Positions 4,006 through 38,234 of a stretch of DNA of 64,000 bases are shown one piece after another. How positions within the stretch are numbered: the stretch's first letter is position 1; every line of letters begins with the position of its first letter. This DNA comes from an uncultured Alphaproteobacteria bacterium (GTDB lineage Bacteria > Pseudomonadota > Alphaproteobacteria > CAWJRW01). The position numbers and the translations under genes were made by a program. Below the pieces are notes generated by a model. That model worked only from the letters and a program-made list of their open reading frames with translations. It was not told the origin of the DNA and did no database searches. Location: NCBI GenBank assembly GCA_963845385.1, contig CAWJRW010000006.1, forward strand, positions 711,450 through 775,449. Reading direction: 5' to 3'.

Positions 4006-4258
4006 GGACCAAAGAACCGAAACCGATGCGGCAGGAGCCGTTATCGCCCGTGCCAATCCGAGCCATGCAGCAGCGCACGCCCTGGCTTTACGCCCTGCGA
4101 ATGCAGATTCTCGGCCATGCGCGAATTGGCAAGGCAGAGCCGACGCTTAACGTTGGCGCGGCAGGCTCCTTCTTGGTAAGATTTGCCCGATGATTCATGG
4201 TTCTCGCCCGCACCGGAAGCACGCTTCCGGCGGGCCTTCTTTCATCCGCTGATCGCCC

Positions 4259-7044
<2,786 letters not shown>

Positions 7045-7636: not shown

Positions 7637-8814
7637 GTGTCCATCGGCGCTCTTCAATCAAATGCAAGGGAGACACTCGAATGTCTCGGGAGGAAGGGGA
7701 CTTGCCGCGCCGGCGTCGTCGCCGTCGGGGCGCTGGTCAGCGCTGCTTGCAGCGACGGGGACGGGCGACGGCCCAGGGAAAACCGAAAGCTCAGCGGTGG
7801 ACAAGCAACGGCGCCGTTCACGGTCCGGCCTACACGGTGCCCTGGTCGAGCCTCGCGAGCACCGAGGGCAAGGCCTTCTTCATCGAAATGAGCAAGGCAA
7901 CCGTTTCCGCCCGGCGGGCCGAAGTGCCGACATCGCGACCATGCGCAAGGCGAGTCGATGACGCGATCTTCAAGCCGCAGATCGAGCAGCAGAAGGCGGC
8001 CTATCCGGTCAAGATCGAGCAACAGACCATCGCCGGCGTCTATACCGAGGTGTTCACGCCCGTGGGCGGCGTCCCCATCGCGAACGCAGAGGCGCGTGCT
8101 CATCAATCTGCATGGCGGCGGATTCGTCATGGGCGCGCGCACGGAGGGACAGATCGAGTCCATTCCCGATCGCGAGCGTGGGCAAGATCAAAGTCATCAG
8201 CGTGGACTACCGCCAGGGCCCGGAAAACAAGTTTCCCTCGGCGAGCGAGGACGTGGCCAAGGTCTATATGGAGCTGCTCAAGACTTATAAGCCGCGCAAC
8301 ATCGGCATCTATGGCTGCTCGGCGGGCGGAATGCTGACGGCCGAGATGGTCGCTTGGTTCGACAAGGAGAATTTGCCGCAGCCGGGCGCCATCGGCATCT
8401 TCTGCGCTTCGGCCTACCGCTCCGACGAGGGCGACTCCGCCTATACCGTCGCCCATGCTTGGCGGCTTTGGGCGCGGCGCCCACGGGCAAAGCCCAGCTG
8501 GGGAATGTCGGGCGCCTATTTCGGCGACACGGCTCTCAACGATCCCTTGGCCGTGCCCGGCGCGTCGAAAGGGATTCTCGCCAAGTTTCCGCCGACGCTC
8601 TTGATCACCGGCACGCGCGCTGCCGGAGATGAGCGCGGCGCTTCAACACGCATATCGAGCTCGTCAAGCTCGGCATCGATGCGCAGATCTTCGTTTGGGA
8701 CGGCATGCCCCACGCCTTCTTCTACAATCCGGATCTGCCGGAATCGAAAGAGGCCTACGACATCATCGTCAAGTTCTTCGACAGCCATCTCGGCAGGCGC
8801 ATACTGCCATTCTG
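7637..8814 (+). CDS. Alpha/beta-hydrolase esterase/lipase (HSL family), probable lipoprotein. Several frameshifts (about 7760, 7950, 8110, 8640).
   Basis: Signal/lipobox [13 protein letters not shown]; HGGGF oxyanion motif; GCSAGG nucleophile elbow; C-terminus [19 protein letters not shown] in a third frame ending at 8814. Confidence 0.65.
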
Positions 8815-8886
8815 AGGCGCGCTGGCTTAATTTCGGAGCGGTCCGGCTTCCCTGCCGGGCCGCTTCGTGCTTTTGGAGAGAGCGCC

Positions 8887-9960
8887 GTGCGGGTCGATGC
8901 TTCGACTACGAGCTGCCGCCCGAGCGCATCGCGCTCAGGCCTGCAAGCCCGCGCGATGCGGCGCGCCTGCTCGTGGTGGACGGCGGGCCGTCTCGAGGAC
9001 CGCATCGTCGCCGACTTGCCCGCGCTCCTGAAGCCCGGCGACGTTCTCGTTCTCAACGACACGGCGGTCATTCCGGCCGAGCTTAAAGGCACACGCGCCA
9101 CACGACTGCCCGAGGGCGGGGAGGCGCGCCTTTCCTTCACATTGCACAAGCGCCTGGACGGCGCGCGCTGGCGCGGCTTCGCGCGTCCGGCCAAGCGGCT
9201 GCGCGCGGGCGACCGGGTTCAATTCGGAGAAGGTCTGACGGCCATCGTCGAGCAGCAACTGGGCGAGGGCGAGGTGCTGCTATCCTTCGATCGCAGTGGA
9301 GAAATGTTGGACAAGGCCTTGCAGGAGCAGGGACAAATGCCGCTTCCGCCCTATATCGCGACGCGCCGCCCGGCGGACGGGCGGGACCGGAGCGACTACC
9401 AGACGGTTTATGCCCGGATGCCCGGCGCCGTGGCCGCGCCGACCGCCGGACTTCATTTCACGCCGGAGCTCTTTACGGCACTCGCCGCGCGCGGGATCGG
9501 CCATGTCATGCTGACCCTCCATGTCGGTCCGGGCACGTTTCTGCCCGTGAAAGCCGACGATACGAAGGACCATGTCATGCACGCCGAATGGGGCCGCGTG
9601 ACTCCGGATGCAGCGCGCACGATCAACGCGACGCGGCGCGAGGGCGGCAGACTCGTTGCAGTCGGCACGACGAGCTTGCGCCTGCTCGAAAGCGCGGCCG
9701 ACGAAACGGGCCGCGTTCAGCCTTTCGAGGGCGAGACGCGACTTTTCATCACGCCGGGCTATCGCTTTCGCACGGCCGAGCTTCTCCTCACCAATTTCCA
9801 TTTGCCGCGCTCGACGCTGCTCATGCTGGTGCAGGCCTTCGGCGGCGTGGAGGCCATGCGCCGCGCTTATGCGCACGCCATCGCCAGCGGCTATCGCTTC
9901 TATTCCTATGGCGATGCCTGCCTCATTCATCGGGCGGCGGCGGCCCCCGCCCATGGCTGA
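8887..9960 (+). CDS. queA: S-adenosylmethionine:tRNA ribosyltransferase-isomerase. GTG start; two frame changes near 8895 and 8990.
   Basis: [26 protein letters not shown] then [17 protein letters not shown] ... [14 protein letters not shown] ... [14 protein letters not shown]. Confidence 0.88.
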
Positions 9961-11121
9961 CGGCTTCGTGTTCGGCATTGCCGCACGCGATGGCGCCGCG
10001 CGCAGCGGCGCCCTCTCAACCCCGCGCGGAGACATTCGCACGCCGGCCTTCATGCCCGTGGGCACGGCGGCACCGTCAAGGCCATGCTGCCGGACCAGGT
10101 GCGCGCCACCGGCGCCGACATCGTGCTCGGCAATACCTATCACCTGATGCTGCGCCCGGGCGCCGAGCGCATCGCACGCCTCGGGGGCTTGCACAAATTC
10201 ATGAATTGGCCGCGGCCGATCTTGACCGACTCCGGCGGCTATCAAGTGATGTCGCTTAGCGCCCTCCGCCGCCTCACCGAGGAGGGCGTGACCTTCCGCT
10301 CCCATCTCGACGGCGCCGAGGAGATGCTGAGCCCGGAGCGCGCGATCGAGATCCAGCGCCTGCTCGGCTCGGACATCGCCATGGTGCTCGACGAATGCAC
10401 GCCCTTTCCGGCGTCGCATGACGAAGCCGCACGCTCCATGGAGCTTTCCATGCGCTGGGCCGCGCGCTCGAAGGCGGCCTTCGTGCCGCGATCGGGCTCG
10501 GCGCTGTTCGGCATCGTGCAAGGCGGCGTTTTTTCGGACCTGCGCGCGCGCTCGGCCGCCGCGCTCCGGGACATCGGCTTCGATGGCTACGCGCTCGGCG
10601 GGCTTGCCGTGGGCGAGGGGCGCGAGACTATGTTTCGCGTGCTCGACGAAACGGTGCCCGTGCTTCCGGAGTCATCGCCGCGCTATCTCATGGGCGTCGG
10701 CAAGCCCGAGGACATTGTGGGCGCGGTGCAGCGCGGCATCGACATGTTCGATTGCGTCATACCCACGCGCTCGGGCCGGAACGGGCAGGCCTTCACCTGG
10801 GACGGGCCGCTCAACCTGCGCAATGCGCGCCACGCCGACGACCCGCGCCCCCTCGACGAGACGAGCGCCTGTCCGGCGAGCCGTGACTACGCGCGCGCCT
10901 ATCTGCATCACCTCGTGAAGGCGAACGAGATCCTCGGCGCCGTGCTCCTGTCCTGGCACAACCTCGCCTTCTTTCAAGCTTTGATGGCAGCGCTGCGCCG
11001 GGCGATCGCGGACGAAAAGCTCGATGCCTTCGTGGCGGGCTTTCGGGCGCGCTATCGCGCCGGCATTGGCGAGACCGAGGCGAACGAAAGGGAACCCGCC
11101 GGGAAACTCAAGCGGGATTGA
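9953..11121 (+). CDS. tgt: Queuine tRNA-ribosyltransferase. Start overlaps the queA stop. One frame change near 10075.
   Basis: [40 protein letters not shown] then [13 protein letters not shown] ... [12 protein letters not shown] ... [14 protein letters not shown]. Confidence 0.9.
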
Positions 11122-11587
11122 CCGGGACGGCGGAGCGCTGCTCCCAATAGCGCTTCGGCACGTCGTAATGCGTTGCGATCACGAGCATATCGATGATGCT
11201 CTGGTCGTCCGAAAAAGGCACGACGAGCACTTCCAAGTGACCGTACACTTTGTACATCGACAAGCTCTCATGGAAAACCAGGAGCGGCGCGCGGCTCTCC
11301 AATGCGCGGATGAGATTGGTGTGCATGATGTTGCGAAGCGTGTCATTCGGCATGACATCGAGAGTCTTGCCCGTCAAATCGAAGCCCGTGCGGTCGACGC
11401 TCGCGGTGCCCTGAATGCGGAAGAAGAAGCGCAAGGGGTCGCGAAGAGCATCGACCAGAGAGAGGTTGCCCAGAATGTAACGGAGGTTCAGGGGATCGAT
11501 GTCGGCTCGCGTCGGGAATGCGCGCACGCCGCGCCAGGTTTGCCAATCCCGGTAGAAGCGTTGCAGACTGGGCGACTTCACATCCAT
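11108..11587 (-). CDS. PAS_5/DUF1457-like small protein, paralog A (159 aa)
   Basis: [44 protein letters not shown]...[11 protein letters not shown]...[10 protein letters not shown]...[14 protein letters not shown] matches the L-x-x-Y-x-x-W-x-x-x-RG-x-R-x-x-P-x-R-x-D-x-DP pattern of the alphaproteobacterial PAS_5 family (recalled from memory, not searched). Confidence 0.6.
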
Positions 11588-11595
11588 TGTGCGAC

Positions 11596-11778
11596 CTATA
11601 TGCCCGCGCCCACGAGGGAAACGTTTCCCGGAATGTGACGGAGGTCGAGAGGATCAAAATCAGAGCGCATCGGGAAGACGCGCGTGCCTCGCCGCGCCTC
11701 CCAATCCCGATAGAGCCGTTGCAAGGTTGGCGACTTTGCTTCCACGATGCGCCCCTGCGGGCTTCCTTCCAAGCTCAA
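11596..11778 (-). pseudogene. Truncated 5' fragment (first ~45 codons) of a PAS_5-like paralog, abutting the start of paralog A
   Basis: KSPTLQRLYRDWEARRGTRVFPMRSDFDPLDLRHIPGNVSLV, then the frame is lost 9 bp upstream of the ATG of 11108..11587. Confidence 0.55.
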
Positions 11779-11860
11779 TTTTGGCCGCCTGCTCCTTAAG
11801 ATTTGCTAAGCGGCTGCGGGCTTCGCGGGAAGGCGGCGGGCGCCCGCGCTTTTCGGCCGG

Positions 11861-12355
11861 TCAACGGGGTGTCGCGGGCGAGAAGGGTCTCAAGACGGAG
11901 TATTTGGGCACATCGAAATGCGTGCCGGTCGCGAGCATGTCGATCGTTCGTCCGTCGCGCGAAAACGGCAGGATGAGCGCTTCGATGAAGCCGAATTCCT
12001 TGGTGGCCATCACCCGTTCCTGGGAACGAAGAATCGGCGCACGTGCTTCGAGTGCTTGCGTGAGACCTTGCCGGAGGATTTCGCGGACGGACTGGTCGGG
12101 AAGTGCATCCAAGCTCTTATGCGTCAGATCGAAGCCCAGCCTTTCGGCGCTCGACGTCGCGTGGATGCGGTAGAAGAAGCGCAGCGGGTCATAGAACACA
12201 TCGGTCAGGGACAAGTTCCCCAAGATGTAACGCAGCTCCAAGGGATCGATGTCGAACCGGTCCGGGAAAAGGCGCGCGCCGCGCCATCGTTCCCAGTCGC
12301 GATAGAGACATCGCAGGGCTTCCGACTTCAGGTCCAACGCACTGCTCCTTGGCAT
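11861..12355 (-). CDS. PAS_5/DUF1457-like small protein, paralog B (~165 aa; the ORF extends upstream to 12577 but the likely start is MPRSSALDLKSEALR)
   Basis: [53 protein letters not shown]...GFDLTHKSLD...ILPFSRDGRTIDML. Confidence 0.6.
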   Translation of the reverse strand: MPRSSALDLKSEALRCLYRDWERWRGARLFPDRFDIDPLELRYILGNLSLTDVFYDPLRFFYRIHATSSAERLGFDLTHKSLDALPDQSVREILRQGLTQALEARAPILRSQERVMATKEFGFIEALILPFSRDGRTIDMLATGTHFDVPKYSVLRPFSPATPR

Positions 12356-12443
12356 TGGTCTGGTACAACCGCCGGCGGACCAAAGCCCGGGCGCCGTCAA
12401 ACGCGCCTCGCTCAGCGAACGCACCGTGCCGGGATGTCGGCAG

Positions 12444-12920
12444 TCACGCGGTGTCTCGCTGCGCCGCAGCCCGAGGCGAAACGCGCGCGGGGATGACCAG
12501 ATGTGTGCCGGCGGCGAGCATGTCGATCGTTTGTCCGTCGCTCGAGAACGGCAACACGAGCACCTCCACGCGGCCAAAGGCCTTGACGAGATTCGCCGGG
12601 TCCACGATCTCCGAATACGGTGCCCGTCTCTTTAGGACCTCGATTAGGTTGGCGCGCATGTATTCCCGGTATTCGTCGTCCGGCAGCTCGTCCAGGCTCT
12701 TGCCCGTAAGATCGAAGCCCATGCGTTCGGCGCGGGCGGAGGCATGGATGCGGACCAAGAAGCGCAAGGGGTTGTACGAGACGGCGAAGACCCACAGGTT
12801 CCCAAGCATGTATTTCAGCTGAAGAGGATCGAGATCCTCGCGCGCCGGAAACTTGCGTTCGCCGCGCCAGCAATTCCAATCCTCATAGAGCTGCCGCAAG
12901 GCCGGTGTGTTCAGTTGCAT
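12444..12920 (-). CDS. PAS_5/DUF1457-like small protein, paralog C (158 aa)
   Basis: LRQLYEDWNCWRGERKFPAREDLDPLQLKYMLGNL...NPLRFLVRIHA...GFDLTGKSLD...VLPFSSDGQTIDML. Confidence 0.6.
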   Translation of the reverse strand: MQLNTPALRQLYEDWNCWRGERKFPAREDLDPLQLKYMLGNLWVFAVSYNPLRFLVRIHASARAERMGFDLTGKSLDELPDDEYREYMRANLIEVLKRRAPYSEIVDPANLVKAFGRVEVLVLPFSSDGQTIDMLAAGTHLVIPARVSPRAAAQRDTA

Positions 12921-12965
12921 GGCGACCTGTTTCCTAGTGCTCGGACCACATGAACATCGACGCGC

Positions 12966-13454
12966 TCAAGCGGTTTGCACGCGCGGCACTTGCGCCGCGG
13001 GGCGCTTTGGGACGTCGAATTTCGTTCCCGTCATCAACATGTCGACGGTCTGGCCGTCGCTCGAGAACGGCAGAATGATCGCTTCGACAAACCAGTATTC
13101 GTTGTTGGTGAAGACCCGCTCACGAAGCTTGACCGACGGCGCGCGGTTTACGACGGCTTCGAGGAAGTGCTCGCGAATGAAGGCCTGATAGGTAGGGTTC
13201 GGCAGGGCATCCAGGCTCTTTCCTGTGAGGTCGAAGCCCAGATGCCCGGAGCTTGCGCTTGCGTGAATGCGGTAGTGAAAGCGCACCGGATCATAGAGAA
13301 CGTCGGTGATCGAGAGGTTCCCGAGGATGTATTTGAGGTCGAGCGGATCGAAATCGGCGCGCGCGGGAAATTCCCGCGCACCGCGCCAACGCCGCCAATC
13401 CTGATAGAGCCGCTGCAGGCTCGGCGATCTTATGTCCACCGCATGAACCCTCAT
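12966..13454 (-). CDS. PAS_5/DUF1457-like small protein, paralog D (~163 aa; likely start MRVHAVDIRSPSLQRL)
   Basis: LQRLYQDWRRWRGAREFPARADFDPLDLKYILGNLSITDVLYDPVRFHYRIHA...GFDLTGKSLD...ILPFSSDGQTVDML. Confidence 0.6.
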   Translation of the reverse strand: MRVHAVDIRSPSLQRLYQDWRRWRGAREFPARADFDPLDLKYILGNLSITDVLYDPVRFHYRIHASASSGHLGFDLTGKSLDALPNPTYQAFIREHFLEAVVNRAPSVKLRERVFTNNEYWFVEAIILPFSSDGQTVDMLMTGTKFDVPKRPAAQVPRVQTA

Positions 13455-13661
13455 GTCGCGGGCGAGCGATGGTTGGCCGAAGGCACTTGAAGATCTGTTA
13501 ACTGTCGGTGCCGAAGCCGTCGGCACGGCGCGGCGGGCCGAGACCAGGCCGCGCTGCACGGGCATGGCTGGGGCGCCAGGTGTCTGCCCAGGGCATGTGG
13601 CGCGCGGCGCCGCCTTCCTTGACCCCTTCCCGGGGCACGCCTACTTTCCGCCCCATCGATC

Positions 13662-13736
13662 GGGCCCGTAGCTCAGTGGCAGAGCATCTGACTTTTAATC
13701 AGAGGGTCGATGGTTCGAATCCATCCGGGCTCACCA
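13662..13736 (+). tRNA. tRNA-Lys (anticodon UUU), 75 nt including CCA
   Basis: GGGCCCGTAGCTCAGTGGCAGAGCA...anticodon stem TCTGA/TCAGA, loop CTTTTAA...GGTTCGAATCC T-loop...CGGGCTCACCA. Confidence 0.9.
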
Positions 13737-13878
13737 GCAAGTTCCTGATGCCAAGAATCCATTCTGATTGTGAGGCGGCCGAGTCGAAATAACTCGGGTC
13801 CATGAATAACCAGAATTGGCTTCCTGCGGCACGTGGCGGGGTATTCCCCGCGTTGCGGCTTGAGAGAGGACCAGAGCG

Positions 13879-14442
13879 ATGAGCGATTTTTCTCTTCCGC
13901 CGCCGGATCTCGATTTTTCGACCGCCACGCCGCCGGCCATGGAGTTTGCCTTCCGTATACGGATTTTCTTCAAGGAGCGGGTGCGGCTCGCGCCGACGAC
14001 GCCTTTGGGGGGACGGGTGTATGTGCCGCCGATGGCGGGGGATATCGTGGGCCCGCGGCTGCAGGGCAGGGTGGTTCCCTATAGCGGCGCCGATTACGCG
14101 CGGGGACGAGCCGACGGCGTGGGCGAGCTCAACGCCCATTACATGCTGGAAGCGTCCGACGGCACGCCCATCTACATCAACAATCGCGGCTTTCTCTATG
14201 CGCGCGATGAGAACGGCAAGCCGCTGCCACAGGCGGGAAGCGAACCTTCACACTTCGGCGCGCCACCGGCGAGCCCGCCGCGTTTCGCGGCGACGCCCAA
14301 TCTCTACTTCGTCTGCATTCCCGCCTTCGACGCGCCGACGGGCCCCCATGATTGGCTGACGCGCCACGTTTTCCTGTGCCGGGGCGTGCGCAAATCGCCG
14401 CCGGACCACACGGTGTTCGATTACTTCGTCGTCACGGGGTGA
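13879..14442 (+). CDS. DUF3237-like protein
   Basis: GGRVYVPPMAGDIVGPRLQGRVVPYSGADYARGRADGVGELNAHYMLEASDGTPIYINNRGF resembles the DUF3237 beta-barrel family pattern. Confidence 0.5.
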   Translation: MSDFSLPPPDLDFSTATPPAMEFAFRIRIFFKERVRLAPTTPLGGRVYVPPMAGDIVGPRLQGRVVPYSGADYARGRADGVGELNAHYMLEASDGTPIYINNRGFLYARDENGKPLPQAGSEPSHFGAPPASPPRFAATPNLYFVCIPAFDAPTGPHDWLTRHVFLCRGVRKSPPDHTVFDYFVVTG

Positions 14443-16061
14443 GACGCTTCGCGCGGGAGCGCGGGCTTGCCGAGGATCATGTCGGACGCCTTCTCGGCGA
14501 TCATGATGGTGGGCGCGTGGGTGTGGCCGCCGACGACGCGCGGCATGATCGAGGCATCAACCACGCGCAAGCTTTCGACGCCGCGCACCTTGAGCTCGGC
14601 ATCGACCACGGCGTCGTGCCCGTCGCCCATGGCGCAGGTGCTCGTCGGATGGTGGACGATGCTCACCATCTGGCGCATGTAAGCCAAGAGCTCGGCATCG
14701 CTTCGGACGTCCGTCCCGGGCATGATTTCCCGCCGCACGAGCGTGGAAGCCGGTGCGGTCGCGATGAATTCGCGCATCATGCGCAAGCCGCGCAGAAATG
14801 TCGCGCGATCGCCGGCCTCGGCGAGCAGGTTCAGGACTATGCGCGGCGGCTCGCGCGGGTCGGCCGAGCGCAGCGTGACGCGGCCCCGGCTTTCCGGGTG
14901 CAATAGGATAGTCAGGTAACCAAAAATATGGCCGCGGCCTTTGCGGATGCCGGGAAACCAAACGCGCGCATTCATAGCGGCCGGCGGGAACAGAGCTTCG
15001 ATATCGGCGCGCTCGAGCTCGGGCCGCGTCTTCCACAGCGCCATCGCGATCAGCGGCAGTCCGGCCGTGAGTCCCGTGCCGAAGAGCCGCCAGCGCAAAT
15101 AAGACAAGGCGATGCGATCGAAGCGTATGTGGCTTTCGAAGGTGATGGGGCCGCTCGCCTCATATTGCATGCCGACGGCGGGGTGCTCCTGCAAATTACG
15201 GCCGACGCCCGGCAGATCGTGGATCGGGGCGACGCCCAGCGCCATCAACTCGTCCGCAGGACCTATGCCCGAGAGCAGCAAGAGCTGCGGGGAATTGTAG
15301 GCGCCGCCCGCAAGGATCACTTCGCGCGTGGCGCGGACTTGCTCGAGCTTTCCGTCGCGCGCGAATTCCACGCCGACGGCGCGGCGTTTCTCGAAGACAA
15401 TGCGCGTCGCAAGCACGCCGAGACGCAGGCTGAGATTGGGCCGCGACAGCACGGGCTCGAGATAGCGCGTGGCGGTGCTGGCGCGTCGGCCCTTGTGGAT
15501 CGTGAAATCGGGGGCGCTCACGCCTTCGGGCTTTCCGCCCTCGAAATCGTCCAGCACCGCGTAGCCGCGGGCGCGCGCGGTGGCGGCGATCTGGCGGAAG
15601 AGAAAGTTGTCGATGTCGTGACGCGAGACCGGCATCGGCCCGGAATCGCCGTGATAGGTCGAAGCGCCACGCCAACTCGATTCCGCGCGCTTGAAATAGG
15701 GCAGCACGTCGGCATACGACCAGCCGCGCGCGCCGAGCTGAAGCCACTCGTCGTAGTCGCGCGGGCTTCCCCGCGTGTACATCATGCCGTTGATCGACGA
15801 CGAGCCGCCGAGCACCTTGCCGCGCGGCAAGGGAACCGTGCGGTTGTCCGCATGGGGCTCGGGCTCACTCCAATAGCCCCAATTGACGGAGGGCTCCTGC
15901 GACAAAGCCATGAACGCGAACGGTATCGCCATCAGGCGGTAACGGTTCGGTCCGCCCGCCTCGAGCATCAGCACGCGATTGTCGGGGTCTTCCGTGAGCC
16001 GGTTGGCGAGCACGCAGCCGGCGGTTCCGGCGCCCACAACAATAAAGTCGTAGCTCTGCAT
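14421..16061 (-). CDS. GMC-family FAD oxidoreductase (choline dehydrogenase-like), 546 aa, intact
   Basis: MQSYDFIVVGAGTAGCVLANRLTEDPDNRVLMLEAGG ... GGSSSINGMMYTRG ... C-terminal GMC motifs HPTSTCAMG. Confidence 0.85.
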   Translation of the reverse strand: MQSYDFIVVGAGTAGCVLANRLTEDPDNRVLMLEAGGPNRYRLMAIPFAFMALSQEPSVNWGYWSEPEPHADNRTVPLPRGKVLGGSSSINGMMYTRGSPRDYDEWLQLGARGWSYADVLPYFKRAESSWRGASTYHGDSGPMPVSRHDIDNFLFRQIAATARARGYAVLDDFEGGKPEGVSAPDFTIHKGRRASTATRYLEPVLSRPNLSLRLGVLATRIVFEKRRAVGVEFARDGKLEQVRATREVILAGGAYNSPQLLLLSGIGPADELMALGVAPIHDLPGVGRNLQEHPAVGMQYEASGPITFESHIRFDRIALSYLRWRLFGTGLTAGLPLIAMALWKTRPELERADIEALFPPAAMNARVWFPGIRKGRGHIFGYLTILLHPESRGRVTLRSADPREPPRIVLNLLAEAGDRATFLRGLRMMREFIATAPASTLVRREIMPGTDVRSDAELLAYMRQMVSIVHHPTSTCAMGDGHDAVVDAELKVRGVESLRVVDASIMPRVVGGHTHAPTIMIAEKASDMILGKPALPREASHPVTTK

Positions 16062-16312
16062 GAGCGCGCCGTTGTCCGATGGAGGAAGCGCCGGAACGCA
16101 TGACCGGCGCGTAAGAGCGTGCAGGAGCAAGCTCGTTACCACGGCCCCGCGTGCCCGTCACGGGCGTGCTGCCGCCTTTATTGCCTCACGCAGATCGGAG
16201 ACATAGAATGGCCGGCGCCGCGCCTGGAAGCGCCTCTTCATTTCCGCGCCTTCGTTGCGCGCGCTTCGTCCTTTGACCGCCGCACGCACAAGATCAGACC
16301 TTAGGGAGAAAC

Positions 16313-17800
16313 CCATGAACGCGCCTGCCACGGCTACTCGACTGGACGCTGTCTCGGCATTTCTGGCCAAGCCCCACAAGCTCTTGATCGGCGATGCGTG
16401 GGTTGAGGCGCAATCGGGCGAGACGATCGAATGCGTCGATCCGGCGACGGGCAAGACGATTGGTCATGCCGCGGCCGGCGGCAAGGCGGATGTGGACAAG
16501 GCCGTCAAGGCCGCGCGGAAAGCCTTCGAGCCTTGGGCGAACACGCCTCCCGGCGAGCGCGCCAAGCTCATGTGGAAGCTCGCCGATGCGTTGGAGCGGG
16601 AGGGGCAGGATCTTGGTCTGATCGAGACGTCTCAACAACGGCATGCCGATCCGCTCGGCGGGCTGGATGGTGCCCTTCGCGGCCGAAGGCTTGCGTTACA
16701 ACGCGGGCTGGGCCGGCAAGGTTGGTGGCGATACGCTCACCCTCGCGGCTCCCAATCACCACGCTTACACGCTGCGCGAGCCAGTGGGGGTCGTGGGCGC
16801 GATCGTGCCCTGGAACGGCCCACTCATCCTGACGGTTATGAAGATCGCGCCGGCCTTGGCAGCGGGCTGCACGGTCGTGCTCAAGCCCGCCGAGCTCACG
16901 CCAATGACGGCGATCCGCATCGGTCAGCTCATTCAGGAAGTGGGCTTCCCGGCCGGGGTGGTCAACATCGTCACGGGCTACGGGCCCGCGGCGGGCCAGG
17001 CGCTGGTCGATCATCCCGATGTCGACAAGATCTCCTTCACCGGGTCGACGCGGGTCGGAAAGTCAATTCTCGCCGCCGCGGGCGGCAACTTGAAGCGCGT
17101 GGCGCTCGAGCTCGGCGGCAAGTCGCCGGTGCTTGTGTTTCCCGACGCGGATCTCGATCGGGCGGCCGAAGGCGCCGCCATGGGGGTTTTCGGGAACACG
17201 GGTCAGGTCTGCGTCGCGGGCTCGCGGCTCTTCGTGCACAAGAAGGTTTTCGACCGGGTGGTCGAGGCCGTCGCCAAGCGCGCCGCCGCGCTCAAGGTGG
17301 GCGCCGGTATCGATCCCACGACCGAGATCGGCCCGCTCGTCTCCGAGAAGCAGCGCCAGCGCGTCACCGGCTATATCGACTCCGGAACCCGCGATGGCGG
17401 CGAGATCGTCGTCGGCGGCAAAGCCATGAAGGGTCCGGGCTTTTTCGTCGAGCCCACCGTGTTCGTCAACACGACCCCGGCCATGACCATCAATCGCGAG
17501 GAGATTTTCGGCCCCGTGGTCTGCGCCATGCCTTTCGGTGACGACGATCTTGACCAGATCGCCGCCGCAGCCAACGACACCGAATACGGGCTGTCGTCCT
17601 ACATTTGGACGAAAGACGTGAGCCTCGTGCACAAGCTCGCGCGCAAGCTCAAAGCGGGCACGGTGCGCGTCAACGGCGGCTCGGTCCTCGACCACAACAT
17701 GCCCTTCGGCGGTTACAAGCAGTCCGGGTGGGGACGCGAGATGGGCCGCGCCGGCATCGAGGCTTATACGGAGGTCAAGTCGGTCTCGATCGCGCTCTAG
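16313..17800 (+). CDS. NAD(P)-dependent aldehyde dehydrogenase. A single-base insertion near 16631 splits it over two frames.
   Basis: RBS AGGGAG upstream; LIGDAWVEA...VDPATGK then EPVGVVGAIVPWNGPL ... ELGGKSP ... FGNTGQVCVAGSR ... EEIFGPV. Confidence 0.88.
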
Positions 17801-35631: not shown

Positions 35632-35870
35632 AGCTGCCTCTCCTTCGGTTACTGTGACGGGAAGGCCAAGGCGACACGCTACGCCGCGCCCGGCCGTATC
35701 AGACGCAACAGGAACAAGGGCGGCACACTATCGGGGCCGCGCCGGTATCTCTTAAATAGGAGATATCAACTCTTATATAGTAGTTAAGGGGCAGGCAAGA
35801 AAAAGGCGCCCGGCCGGATCGGGGGCGCCTCTAACTTGACCATATCTCCTATATATGGGACGTTTCGGCC

Positions 35871-36777: not shown

Positions 36778-37092
36778 ATGGACACCTTCCGGTCGATTCG
36801 CCGACGGCTCCAAGAGCGCCTGATCCTCGGCATCTGCCTTGCCGCGATCGTGTTCTTCGCCCATTCGGCGCTCTTCGATCCCCACGGGCTCAGACGCCTC
36901 GTGAGCCTCAAGGCAACGCTGTCTCAACACGAAACCGTGCTTGTGGAGCGGCAGGCCCTGCGGGAACAGAAGGAACAGCGGGTCCGCATGCTGAGCCCGG
37001 ACAGCCTCGACCCGGACCTGCTGGACGAACGGGCCCGCGCGGCGTTAGGTCTTGCGCGCCCGGACGAGATCGTCATCTTTAAGCAACGCTGA
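36778..37092 (+). CDS. ftsB: Septum formation initiator family protein (FtsB-like)
   Basis: N-terminal TM ILGICLAAIVFFA then a coiled coil; conserved position upstream of pdhA in alphaproteobacteria. Confidence 0.6.
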   Translation: MDTFRSIRRRLQERLILGICLAAIVFFAHSALFDPHGLRRLVSLKATLSQHETVLVERQALREQKEQRVRMLSPDSLDPDLLDERARAALGLARPDEIVIFKQR

Positions 37093-37211
37093 AAACGCAG
37101 GCTCGACCCGGCTTTCCCAGGCGGCGAAGCCCTGTCGCGTGGGCCGGCCTATGCAGGTCACGGGCGGGCCTTCAGCGAGTATGATGTAAACCTTTCCCAG
37201 GACGTGAGGCC

Positions 37212-38234
37212 ATGGCGAGCCCGAAGGCGCAAAGCGACGGAGAGCGGGGCAACGGCAGCGTGACCGACAAGAGCGCGGCCACCACGCTCATTGAAGACTT
37301 CCGTCTCATGCTGCTCATCCGCCGTTTCGAGGAGCGCGCGGGCCAGCTCTATGGCATGGGCCTCGTCGGCGGCTTCTGTCATCTCTATATCGGACAGGAA
37401 GCGGTCGTCGTGGGTATGCAAGCCTGCGTCAAGGAGGGCGACCAAGTCATCACGGGGTATCGCGATCACGGCCACATGCTCGCCTGCGGCATGGACCCCA
37501 ACGGCGTCATGGCCGAGCTTGCCGGCCGCGCCATCGGCTATTCCAAGGGCAAGGGCGGCTCGATGCACATGTTCAGCGTCCAGAAGAATTTCTTTGGCGG
37601 CCATGGCATTGTGGCCGCCCAAGTGCCCATCGGCACCGGGCTCGCCTTCGCCAACCGCTATCGCGGGCGCGACAACATCTGCATCACTTATTTCGGCGAC
37701 GGCGCGGCCAATCAGGGCCAGGTTTTCGAGAGCTTCAACATGGCCGAGCTGTGGCGGCTGCCGGTGGTCTATGTCATCGAGAACAATCAATACGCCATGG
37801 GCACGTCGGTAAAACGCGCGACCGCCGCGGTGCAGCTTTACCGTCGCGGTGCAGGCCTCGACATTCCGGGCGAGGCGGTGGACGGCATGGATGTGCTGGC
37901 GGTGCGCGCGGCGGGCGAGAAAGCCGCCACTTGGTGCCGCGAAGGCAACGGACCCATCATTCTCGAGATGCAGACCTACCGCTATCGCGGCCACTCGATG
38001 TCGGATCCGGCGAAGTATCGCTCGCGCGAAGAGGTCGATAAGGTGCGCCAAGAGCGCGATCCCATCGAGCTTTGCCGCAAGCACATTCTGGAGGCAGGGC
38101 TCGCCGACGAGGCGGCGCTCAAAGCCATGGATAAGGAAATCCGCGAACGCGTGGCGGAGGCTGCCGAATTTGCCCAGGCCCATCCCGAGCCCGATCCGGC
38201 GGAGCTCTATACCGACGTTCTGGCAGAGGCTTAG
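37212..38234 (+). CDS. pdhA: Pyruvate dehydrogenase E1 component alpha subunit
   Basis: GFCHLYIGQEAVVVG ... YRDHGH ... GGHGIVAAQVPIGTG ... YRYRGHSMSDP. Confidence 0.95.
   Translation: MASPKAQSDGERGNGSVTDKSAATTLIEDFRLMLLIRRFEERAGQLYGMGLVGGFCHLYIGQEAVVVGMQACVKEGDQVITGYRDHGHMLACGMDPNGVMAELAGRAIGYSKGKGGSMHMFSVQKNFFGGHGIVAAQVPIGTGLAFANRYRGRDNICITYFGDGAANQGQVFESFNMAELWRLPVVYVIENNQYAMGTSVKRATAAVQLYRRGAGLDIPGEAVDGMDVLAVRAAGEKAATWCREGNGPIILEMQTYRYRGHSMSDPAKYRSREEVDKVRQERDPIELCRKHILEAGLADEAALKAMDKEIRERVAEAAEFAQAHPEPDPAELYTDVLAEA

Follow-up and report, generated by a model that had tools for sequence, protein, structure and literature searches.

What keeps several small genes of one family side by side in a bacterial chromosome, and what could their products be doing there? 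The question is raised by a stretch of 64,000 nucleotides (nt) from contig CAWJRW010000006.1 of an uncultured alphaproteobacterium (the whole stretch is called the window below), in which an earlier note, made from the sequence alone, had described four minus-strand open reading frames (ORFs) and a gene fragment between tgt and the tRNA-Lys gene. All four ORFs are present, two of them with revised start codons, and the locus is, with near certainty, an array of paralogues of the PAS_5 family (Pfam PF07310, formerly DUF1457).

The PAS_5 array and its counterparts in other lineages

The array and its two boundaries comprise the following features (protein lengths in amino acids, aa):

10084–11121, plus strand: tgt, encoding queuine tRNA-ribosyltransferase (Pfam TGT, E 6e-138); convergent downstream boundary
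11108–11587, minus strand: PAS_5 gene A, 159 aa (Pfam PAS_5, E 4.7e-14)
11596–11778, minus strand: E', remnant of a fifth PAS_5 gene, 60 codons; PAS_5 profile positions 2–40
11861–12337, minus strand: PAS_5 gene B, 158 aa from a TTG start (Pfam PAS_5, E 8.5e-11)
12444–12920, minus strand: PAS_5 gene C, 158 aa (Pfam PAS_5, E 1.7e-13)
12966–13439, minus strand: PAS_5 gene D, 157 aa from a GTG start
13662–13736, plus strand: tRNA-Lys(UUU) (ARAGORN; Rfam tRNA, 75 bits); upstream boundary of the array

A search with hidden Markov models (HMMs) bore out the family membership proposed in the earlier note, since all four proteins exceeded the gathering score of PF07310 (22 bits) with 52.9 (A), 42.3 (B), 51.1 (C) and 41.7 bits (D; E from 5e-14 to 1e-10 for the four). 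The remnant scored 25.0 bits (E 2e-5) over the profile positions listed above. Each of the proteins consists of a single stand-alone PAS domain, with no other Pfam domain and no effector domain, and the confident predicted model of D shows the PAS fold that the note had anticipated, with its antiparallel sheet of five strands and flanking helices. A sequence search of the PDB with the family profile found no solved relative, and the family HMM search found no further PAS_5 gene in the window.

For D, the GTG at 13439 is a likelier start than the ATG at 13454 (which would give 162 aa), and for B the TTG at 12337 is likelier than the ATG at 12355 (164 aa). A conserved GAGG or AAGGAG precedes the revised starts of both genes (AAGGAG in the case of B), and these starts agree with the database gene calls P0001 and P0010 of the same 2.19-Mb contig; the exact sequence of C is also present in the protein collection, again from this contig. 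With the starts so revised, all four proteins are 157–159 aa long and begin with MD(I/V/L)KSPxL or MQLNTPAL.

The copies are strongly diverged. The note had put the identity between them at about 45–55% and read this as an old, maintained duplication; the measured pairwise values are 45–58% for the proteins and 65–79% for the DNA, thus indicating that the copies are not assembly duplicates, for which the note had expected nearly identical DNA. A is the most divergent, with RIQG where the others have RIHA. The age of the duplications is also evident from the synonymous divergence (dS) between the paralogues, which exceeds 1.

Their maintenance became clear from comparison with a 17-kb JGI metagenome contig (L001), where the order tRNA-Lys, D, C, B, remnant, A, tgt, queA is the same as in the window. 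Each window gene has one clear orthologue there, with a protein identity of 73–81% (77% for A, 81% for C), vs. at most 56% to any other copy. The genes of the two lineages are 78–81% identical in DNA and the spacers 51–61%, and the ratio of nonsynonymous to synonymous divergence (dN/dS) is 0.19 for A, 0.31 for B and 0.17 for both C and D, as compared to 0.125 for tgt. The four copies are maintained, as the earlier note had supposed: they are descendants of one ancestral gene, each kept by purifying selection.

A third lineage, represented by the Logan contigs L089/L090, has five intact PAS_5 genes, bounded by a partial tRNA-Lys and by the tgt 3′ end. D, C and A have their orthologues in genes g1, g2 and g3 of L089 (75%, 62% and 70% identity, respectively); the remnant is matched best by g4 (69% over 45 aa), which has a similar upstream block, and g5 is without a clear counterpart. 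A fourth contig, L091, carries tRNA-Lys, D, C and the start of a third copy, so that the same tRNA-Lys flanks the array in L001, in L091 and, partially, in L089. The earlier note had proposed looking for the same array size in related genomes: the size is the same as in the window in L001 and five intact genes in L089, and more distant relatives have no array beside tgt. The array thus comprises five intact genes in one lineage and four genes with a remnant in two; its content and order differ between lineages, which points to birth-and-death evolution. Taken together, these sequence comparisons mean that the stand-alone PAS_5 genes of the locus constitute a lineage-specific tandem family evolving by birth and death.

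The fragment that the note had listed proved to be a true remnant of a fifth gene, since L089 has five intact genes at the same locus and its intact g4 occupies the corresponding place. Only the N-terminal cap region is kept, with homology over about 50 codons. The remnants of the window and of L001 are 60% identical in DNA, with 47 gap columns in their alignment, and some of the residues that the family keeps invariant are gone from the L001 copy. In both lineages it is still an ORF of about 60 codons (window 11596–11778; L001 9711–9894) with its own TTG or ATG start, and stops 8–20 nt before the start of A (8 nt in the window). It could serve as a leader ORF or 5′ untranslated region for A, or this arrangement could be a coincidence.

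In a neighbour-joining tree of 148 homologues, A–D and their orthologues form one clade (bootstrap 72/100), within which each orthologue group is supported in 100 of 100 replicates, and the sister of this clade is a single-copy gene of Centralia_MAG_132 (L002). The single-copy relatives from Stellaceae/Rhodospirillales metagenome-assembled genomes (e.g., L002–L006), mostly of Stellaceae, constitute the sister group; they have the same length as the window proteins and are 47–56% identical to D, and many of them carry a TTAA-N7-TTAA box 33–39 nt upstream. They differ from the window genes in that they are lone and adjoin neither tgt nor tRNA-Lys. Relatives whose Tgt is 78–80% identical to that of the window keep the parC-coaD-ppiase-queA-tgt synteny and have no PAS_5 gene after tgt; since the tgt loci of more distant relatives are without the array, its occurrence at this site is confined to a narrow lineage. 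The window Tgt is 73–74% identical to the Tgt of Rhodothalassium, Oceanibacterium and Arenibaculum, which places the host, roughly, as a Rhodospirillales-like alphaproteobacterium.

Clustering of PAS_5 genes is found elsewhere in the family as well. An exhaustive search with a profile of A–D returned 4837 clusters at 50% identity (E ≤ 1e-3). Of 87 other loci fetched with distant homologues, eight have two to four PAS_5 genes next to one another, and these arose independently. Tandem pairs or triplets are present at L071, L072, L083, L084 and L088, and a TARA marine scaffold (L087, 3648–5909) bears four diverged PAS_5 genes in mixed orientation and of independent origin. Moreover, 11 of the 150 best family representatives are di-PAS_5 fusions of 320–404 aa (e.g., P0069), while P0090 (298 aa) is a fusion of a response-regulator receiver domain to PAS_5, and P0072 (554 aa) carries PAS_5 behind an N-terminal region of about 400 aa that has no Pfam match. 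PAS_5 domains thus recur in physical association, as in the window, so that clustering is a habit of the family and not a peculiarity of this locus, although the other clusters are independent duplications in other clades. With its four to five genes on the same strand, the window array stands at the upper end of the array sizes found.

A conserved promoter-like block with a candidate CtrA site

Two promoter-like segments were found in the array:

13468–13501, minus strand: promoter-like footprint upstream of D, a CtrA-type box and a possible −10 region
11791–11809, minus strand: TTAGCAAATCTTAAGGAGC, a degenerate version of the promoter block of D, ahead of the remnant; only moderately conserved

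The box upstream of D, TTAACAGATCTTCAA at 13487–13501, departs from TTAA-N7-TTAA at one position and is followed after 8 nt by GGCCAACCATC at 13468–13478, a possible −10 region. In the four lineages this 34-nt block (CTTAACAGATCTTCAA, 8 nt, GGCCRACCATC) is essentially invariant, and its box fully so, whereas the DNA around it is only about 50–67% identical. For comparison, the CtrA consensus reported for several Alphaproteobacteria is TTAA-N7-TTAAC (PMC7200025).

The same box recurs before other genes of the family. Among 93 distinct upstream regions of PAS_5 genes in the loci fetched, 22 contain TTAA-N7-TTAA with at most one mismatch (7 of these boxes are perfect), mostly 33–39 nt before the gene start. 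Such boxes were found in 1.3% of random windows of the same loci and in 2.5% of the regions upstream of other long ORFs; shuffled upstream regions gave 0.97 matches on average and 4 at most, and the spacings from N4 to N10 other than N7 gave 1–9 matches vs. 22 for N7. The sequence of the N7 spacer differs between clades and the TTAA half-sites persist, which is the pattern expected of a binding site. The D box is thus possibly a CtrA site, a candidate proposed from its sequence. In the whole window, the only other boxes with one mismatch lie at 35773–35787 and 37079–37093, one of them about 120 nt upstream of a possible plus-strand ORF that starts at 37212, near tRNA-Val.

The block upstream of the remnant has homologues too: the L001 remnant is preceded by TTAATAACTCTTAAA, which has one mismatch, and blocks are also present before g4 and g5 of L089. 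These degenerate two-part blocks indicate that the duplication unit once included the promoter. A second promoter ahead of the remnant, serving A, is weakly supported, because the box in this position of the window is poor.

The remaining spacers look different. The earlier note had regarded the paralogues as individually regulated, each with its own upstream spacer of 45–90 bp. Such spacers do separate D from C (45 nt) and B from the remnant (82 nt), but the C–B spacer measures 88–106 nt, and A is without a spacer of its own, as the gap between the remnant and A is only 8 nt. Individual regulation is not borne out, since D and the remnant alone are preceded by a promoter-like block that is conserved. 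The D–C and C–B spacers diverge like neutral DNA (51–58% identity); sigma-70 and terminator scans and folding revealed in them no promoter, no terminator and no RNA structure beyond that of shuffled sequences, and an Rfam scan detected tRNA only.

MopJ and the possible mode of action of the copies

The earlier note held that the family has no established function. One member has in fact been characterised as a DivJ-binding enhancer of CtrA (PMC4432633), namely MopJ (CCNA_00999) of Caulobacter crescentus, a single-domain PAS_5 protein of 165 aa (Sanselicio et al. 2015, PMC4432633; PMC4620464). MopJ is found at the cell poles and in association with the kinase DivJ; it affects DivK/DivL and promotes CtrA accumulation (PMC4432633). 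The synthesis of MopJ is dependent on GcrA and (p)ppGpp, and ClpXP, which recognises its C-terminal Ala-Ala motif, degrades the protein (PMC4432633). A literature search on PF07310, PAS_5 and DUF1457 returned only irrelevant "PAS5" matches, and a search by locus tag found only the two MopJ papers.

Like MopJ, the window copies are alphaproteobacterial proteins of about 160 aa from the same Pfam family, each a lone PAS domain without an effector, and they match the MopJ model NCBIfam NF051868 weakly but significantly (E from 1e-9 to 4e-14); a link of the array to the CtrA circuit is plausible. Unlike MopJ, which is encoded by a single gene under the control of GcrA and N6-methyladenine (m6A) as well as (p)ppGpp, the window genes constitute a multi-copy tandem array with a CtrA-type box in the promoter and no GANTC. 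Generic stand-alone PAS proteins that modulate kinases or bind ligands (e.g., photoactive yellow protein and short LOV proteins) are more remote: the sequence identity is only 5–16%, the window copies are without chromophore-binding residues, and PAS_5 has a conserved N-terminal FPxRxDxDP segment of its own.

Conservation is distributed very unevenly along the proteins. The N-terminal cap (N-cap) is strongly conserved, with the consensus LxxLYxDWxxWRGxRxFPxRxDxDPLxLxYxLGN, and conservation mapping showed that this cap together with the FPxRxDxDPLxLxYxLGN segment is near-invariant both among the paralogues and family-wide. Variability is concentrated in residues 87–116, that is, in F-alpha (87–103) and G-beta (107–116); across eight or more array sequences, none of the 27 positions in these two elements is invariant. 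The ligand pocket of canonical PAS domains is lined by these two elements, F-alpha and G-beta, and their dimerisation often takes place through the N-cap.

The copies have no output domain and must therefore act via protein contacts or ligand sequestration. We favour the view that they are diversified adaptor or modulator proteins, possibly under CtrA control, a view that draws on the analogy with MopJ. They would probably act by protein–protein contact on the model of MopJ, which binds DivJ and modulates the DivK/DivL/CtrA phosphorelay; the conserved N-cap and core may provide a shared surface for docking or dimerisation, and each paralogue may owe a partner or ligand of its own to the hypervariable F-alpha helix and G-beta strand. 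The predicted promoter upstream of D, with the CtrA-type box as its −35 region, would give a D–C–B transcript, and the degenerate second promoter ahead of the remnant may drive the remnant and A. The latter would be a case of promoter capture, in which the deletion that destroyed the fifth gene left its promoter to serve A. In that case the CtrA pathway would have the array as one of its outputs and possibly receive feedback from it. The fusion of a receiver domain to PAS_5 (P0090) fits the idea that the copies plug into two-component signalling, and the di-PAS_5 and receiver–PAS_5 fusions hint at paired action within phosphorelay signalling. As for the di-PAS_5 fusion P0069, its AlphaFold2 model, built on an alignment of 11 sequences, has both domains folded (predicted local distance difference test, pLDDT, 83; predicted template modelling score, pTM, 0.50).

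Several observations weigh against this view. The copies score 37.7–52.7 bits against NF051868, far from its equivalog cut-off of 200 bits, they are without the C-terminal Ala-Ala of MopJ (their C-termini are NPA, TPR, DTA and QTA), and no GANTC is present in the promoter regions 13455–13660 and 11779–11860 (the GANTC sites of the array, at 11362, 12031 and 12590, lie only inside coding sequence); for these reasons we regard the copies as paralogous relatives of MopJ, not as MopJ orthologues. The evidence for the box has its own weaknesses: the 93 genes are akin and the enrichment statistics ignore kinship, the D box has a mismatch (TCAA), the second box of the window, upstream of the remnant, has three mismatches at the N7 spacing, and the box count within the window is not significant. 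The pTM of P0069 means that the packing of its two domains against each other is not confident. Finally, we found no partner kinase gene near the array and no conserved neighbour around the single-copy relatives, where synteny is clade-specific only (glycosyltransferases and sugar nucleotide enzymes) and spurious ORFs of high guanine–cytosine (GC) content add noise. With all this considered, a birth-and-death array of PAS_5 genes combined with the adaptor/CtrA mechanism is the best explanation overall, to which we give an even chance of being right; its mechanistic part we hold more tentatively, at somewhat short of that.

The earlier note had leaned towards a different reading, in which the paralogues are small-molecule sensors with differing ligand specificities that form a heteromeric module, each under its own regulation. 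It would account for the concentration of variability in just those elements that line the pocket of canonical PAS domains, and the natural di-PAS_5 fusions can be taken as a Rosetta-stone hint of paired PAS_5 domains. Yet the copies bear no cofactor signature and no conserved Cys, the His of RIHA is replaced by Gln in A, MopJ as the sole studied member has no known ligand, and the unconfident packing in the di-PAS_5 model is of little help here as well; individual regulation is contradicted by the neutral-looking D–C and C–B spacers and the short gap before A. We therefore consider the sensor module somewhat unlikely. It is quite improbable, in turn, that the copies are redundant, kept by dosage or drifting neutrally with no division of labour: the array content does vary between close lineages, with one copy lost, and tandem PAS_5 duplications do recur independently elsewhere, but dosage amplification normally gives near-identical copies, and here the paralogues have diverged to 45–58% identity in protein, with dS saturated, and nevertheless have 1:1 orthologues under purifying selection (dN/dS 0.17–0.31).

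That a tRNA-associated genomic island, or another mobile or defence element, carries the array as cargo might be thought from the position of the array next to tRNA-Lys, from its GC content (59–63% at 11000–13500 of the window vs. 65–69% in the flanks), from the tgt loci of more distant relatives that are without it, and from the end of synteny on the far side of the tRNA. But the array sits 5′ of the tRNA, whereas islands integrate at the 3′ end; between tgt and the tRNA there is no integrase-sized ORF, and no repeat of the tRNA end was found; the same locus exists in at least four lineages, and the closest homologues are single-copy genes on the chromosomes of related alphaproteobacteria, all of which leaves an island very improbable. 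An assembly or sequencing artefact, with repeats collapsed or expanded or with a false pseudogene created by indels, might be suspected given the probable 1-nt indel errors in tgt, parC, queA and the aldehyde dehydrogenase and esterase genes of the window. It is ruled out for practical purposes, because the copies are diverged in DNA and the independent assemblies L001, L089/L090 and L091 agree in organisation, L001 even in the remnant; besides, the 191 nt from the remnant start to the start of A are too short for a frameshifted full-length gene.

A bolder form of the adaptor reading, which we consider unlikely, would make the locus a CtrA-switched array of combinatorial PAS_5 adaptors that form homo- and heterodimers through the N-cap, each combination retargeting or tuning another of the histidine kinases or receivers in the cell-cycle/motility phosphorelay. 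If this were true, the adaptors would subject CtrA to a tunable layer of feedback that grows and shrinks as genes are born and lost, and the TTAA-N7-TTAA footprint would assign to the alphaproteobacterial CtrA regulon a large PAS_5 subfamily of thousands of clusters that has hardly been studied.

As to its significance, the array is a lineage-specific expansion of a known family and nothing categorically new; it extends a known theme, and current understanding is not overturned. PAS_5 is a large alphaproteobacterial family of which only MopJ has been studied. The CtrA-type box at many PAS_5 promoters would link the family with the cell-cycle/motility regulon outside Caulobacter as well. The recurrent pairs, arrays and fusions, one of them with a receiver domain, suggest dimerising adaptors in phosphorelays, and the array itself is a compact case of the diversification of a small signalling module by rapid birth, loss and, possibly, promoter capture.

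Surroundings of the array

On the downstream side, the 3′ ends of A and of the convergent tgt overlap by 14 nt, and tgt has the following neighbour:

8629–9960, plus strand: queA

A functional link of the array to tgt/queA, i.e., to queuosine, was considered and rejected in view of the convergent orientation, the location of the single-copy relatives away from tgt and the distant tgt loci without an array.

The synteny between the window and L001 ends at tRNA-Lys (window 13737–17800 vs. L001 5347–7725). Beyond it lie genes for a DUF3237 protein, a GMC oxidoreductase and an aldehyde dehydrogenase in the window, and for an alpha/beta hydrolase as well as an aldehyde dehydrogenase in L001. The variable, island-prone side of this tRNA may be the 3′ one.

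Conserved genes are split across frames at 4197–6706, 7681–9086, 8629–10147 and 16255–17800 of the window. The parC/gyrA-like gene is broken up over three or more frames, queA is out of frame at its N-terminus, and the genes for the aldehyde dehydrogenase and an HGGG-type esterase are frameshifted as well. Such splits are most likely indel errors of long-read assembly rather than real pseudogenes. In tgt, one C is missing near 10066 relative to L001, and the frameshifted Tgt of 345 aa is recorded for the 2.19-Mb contig as P0217.

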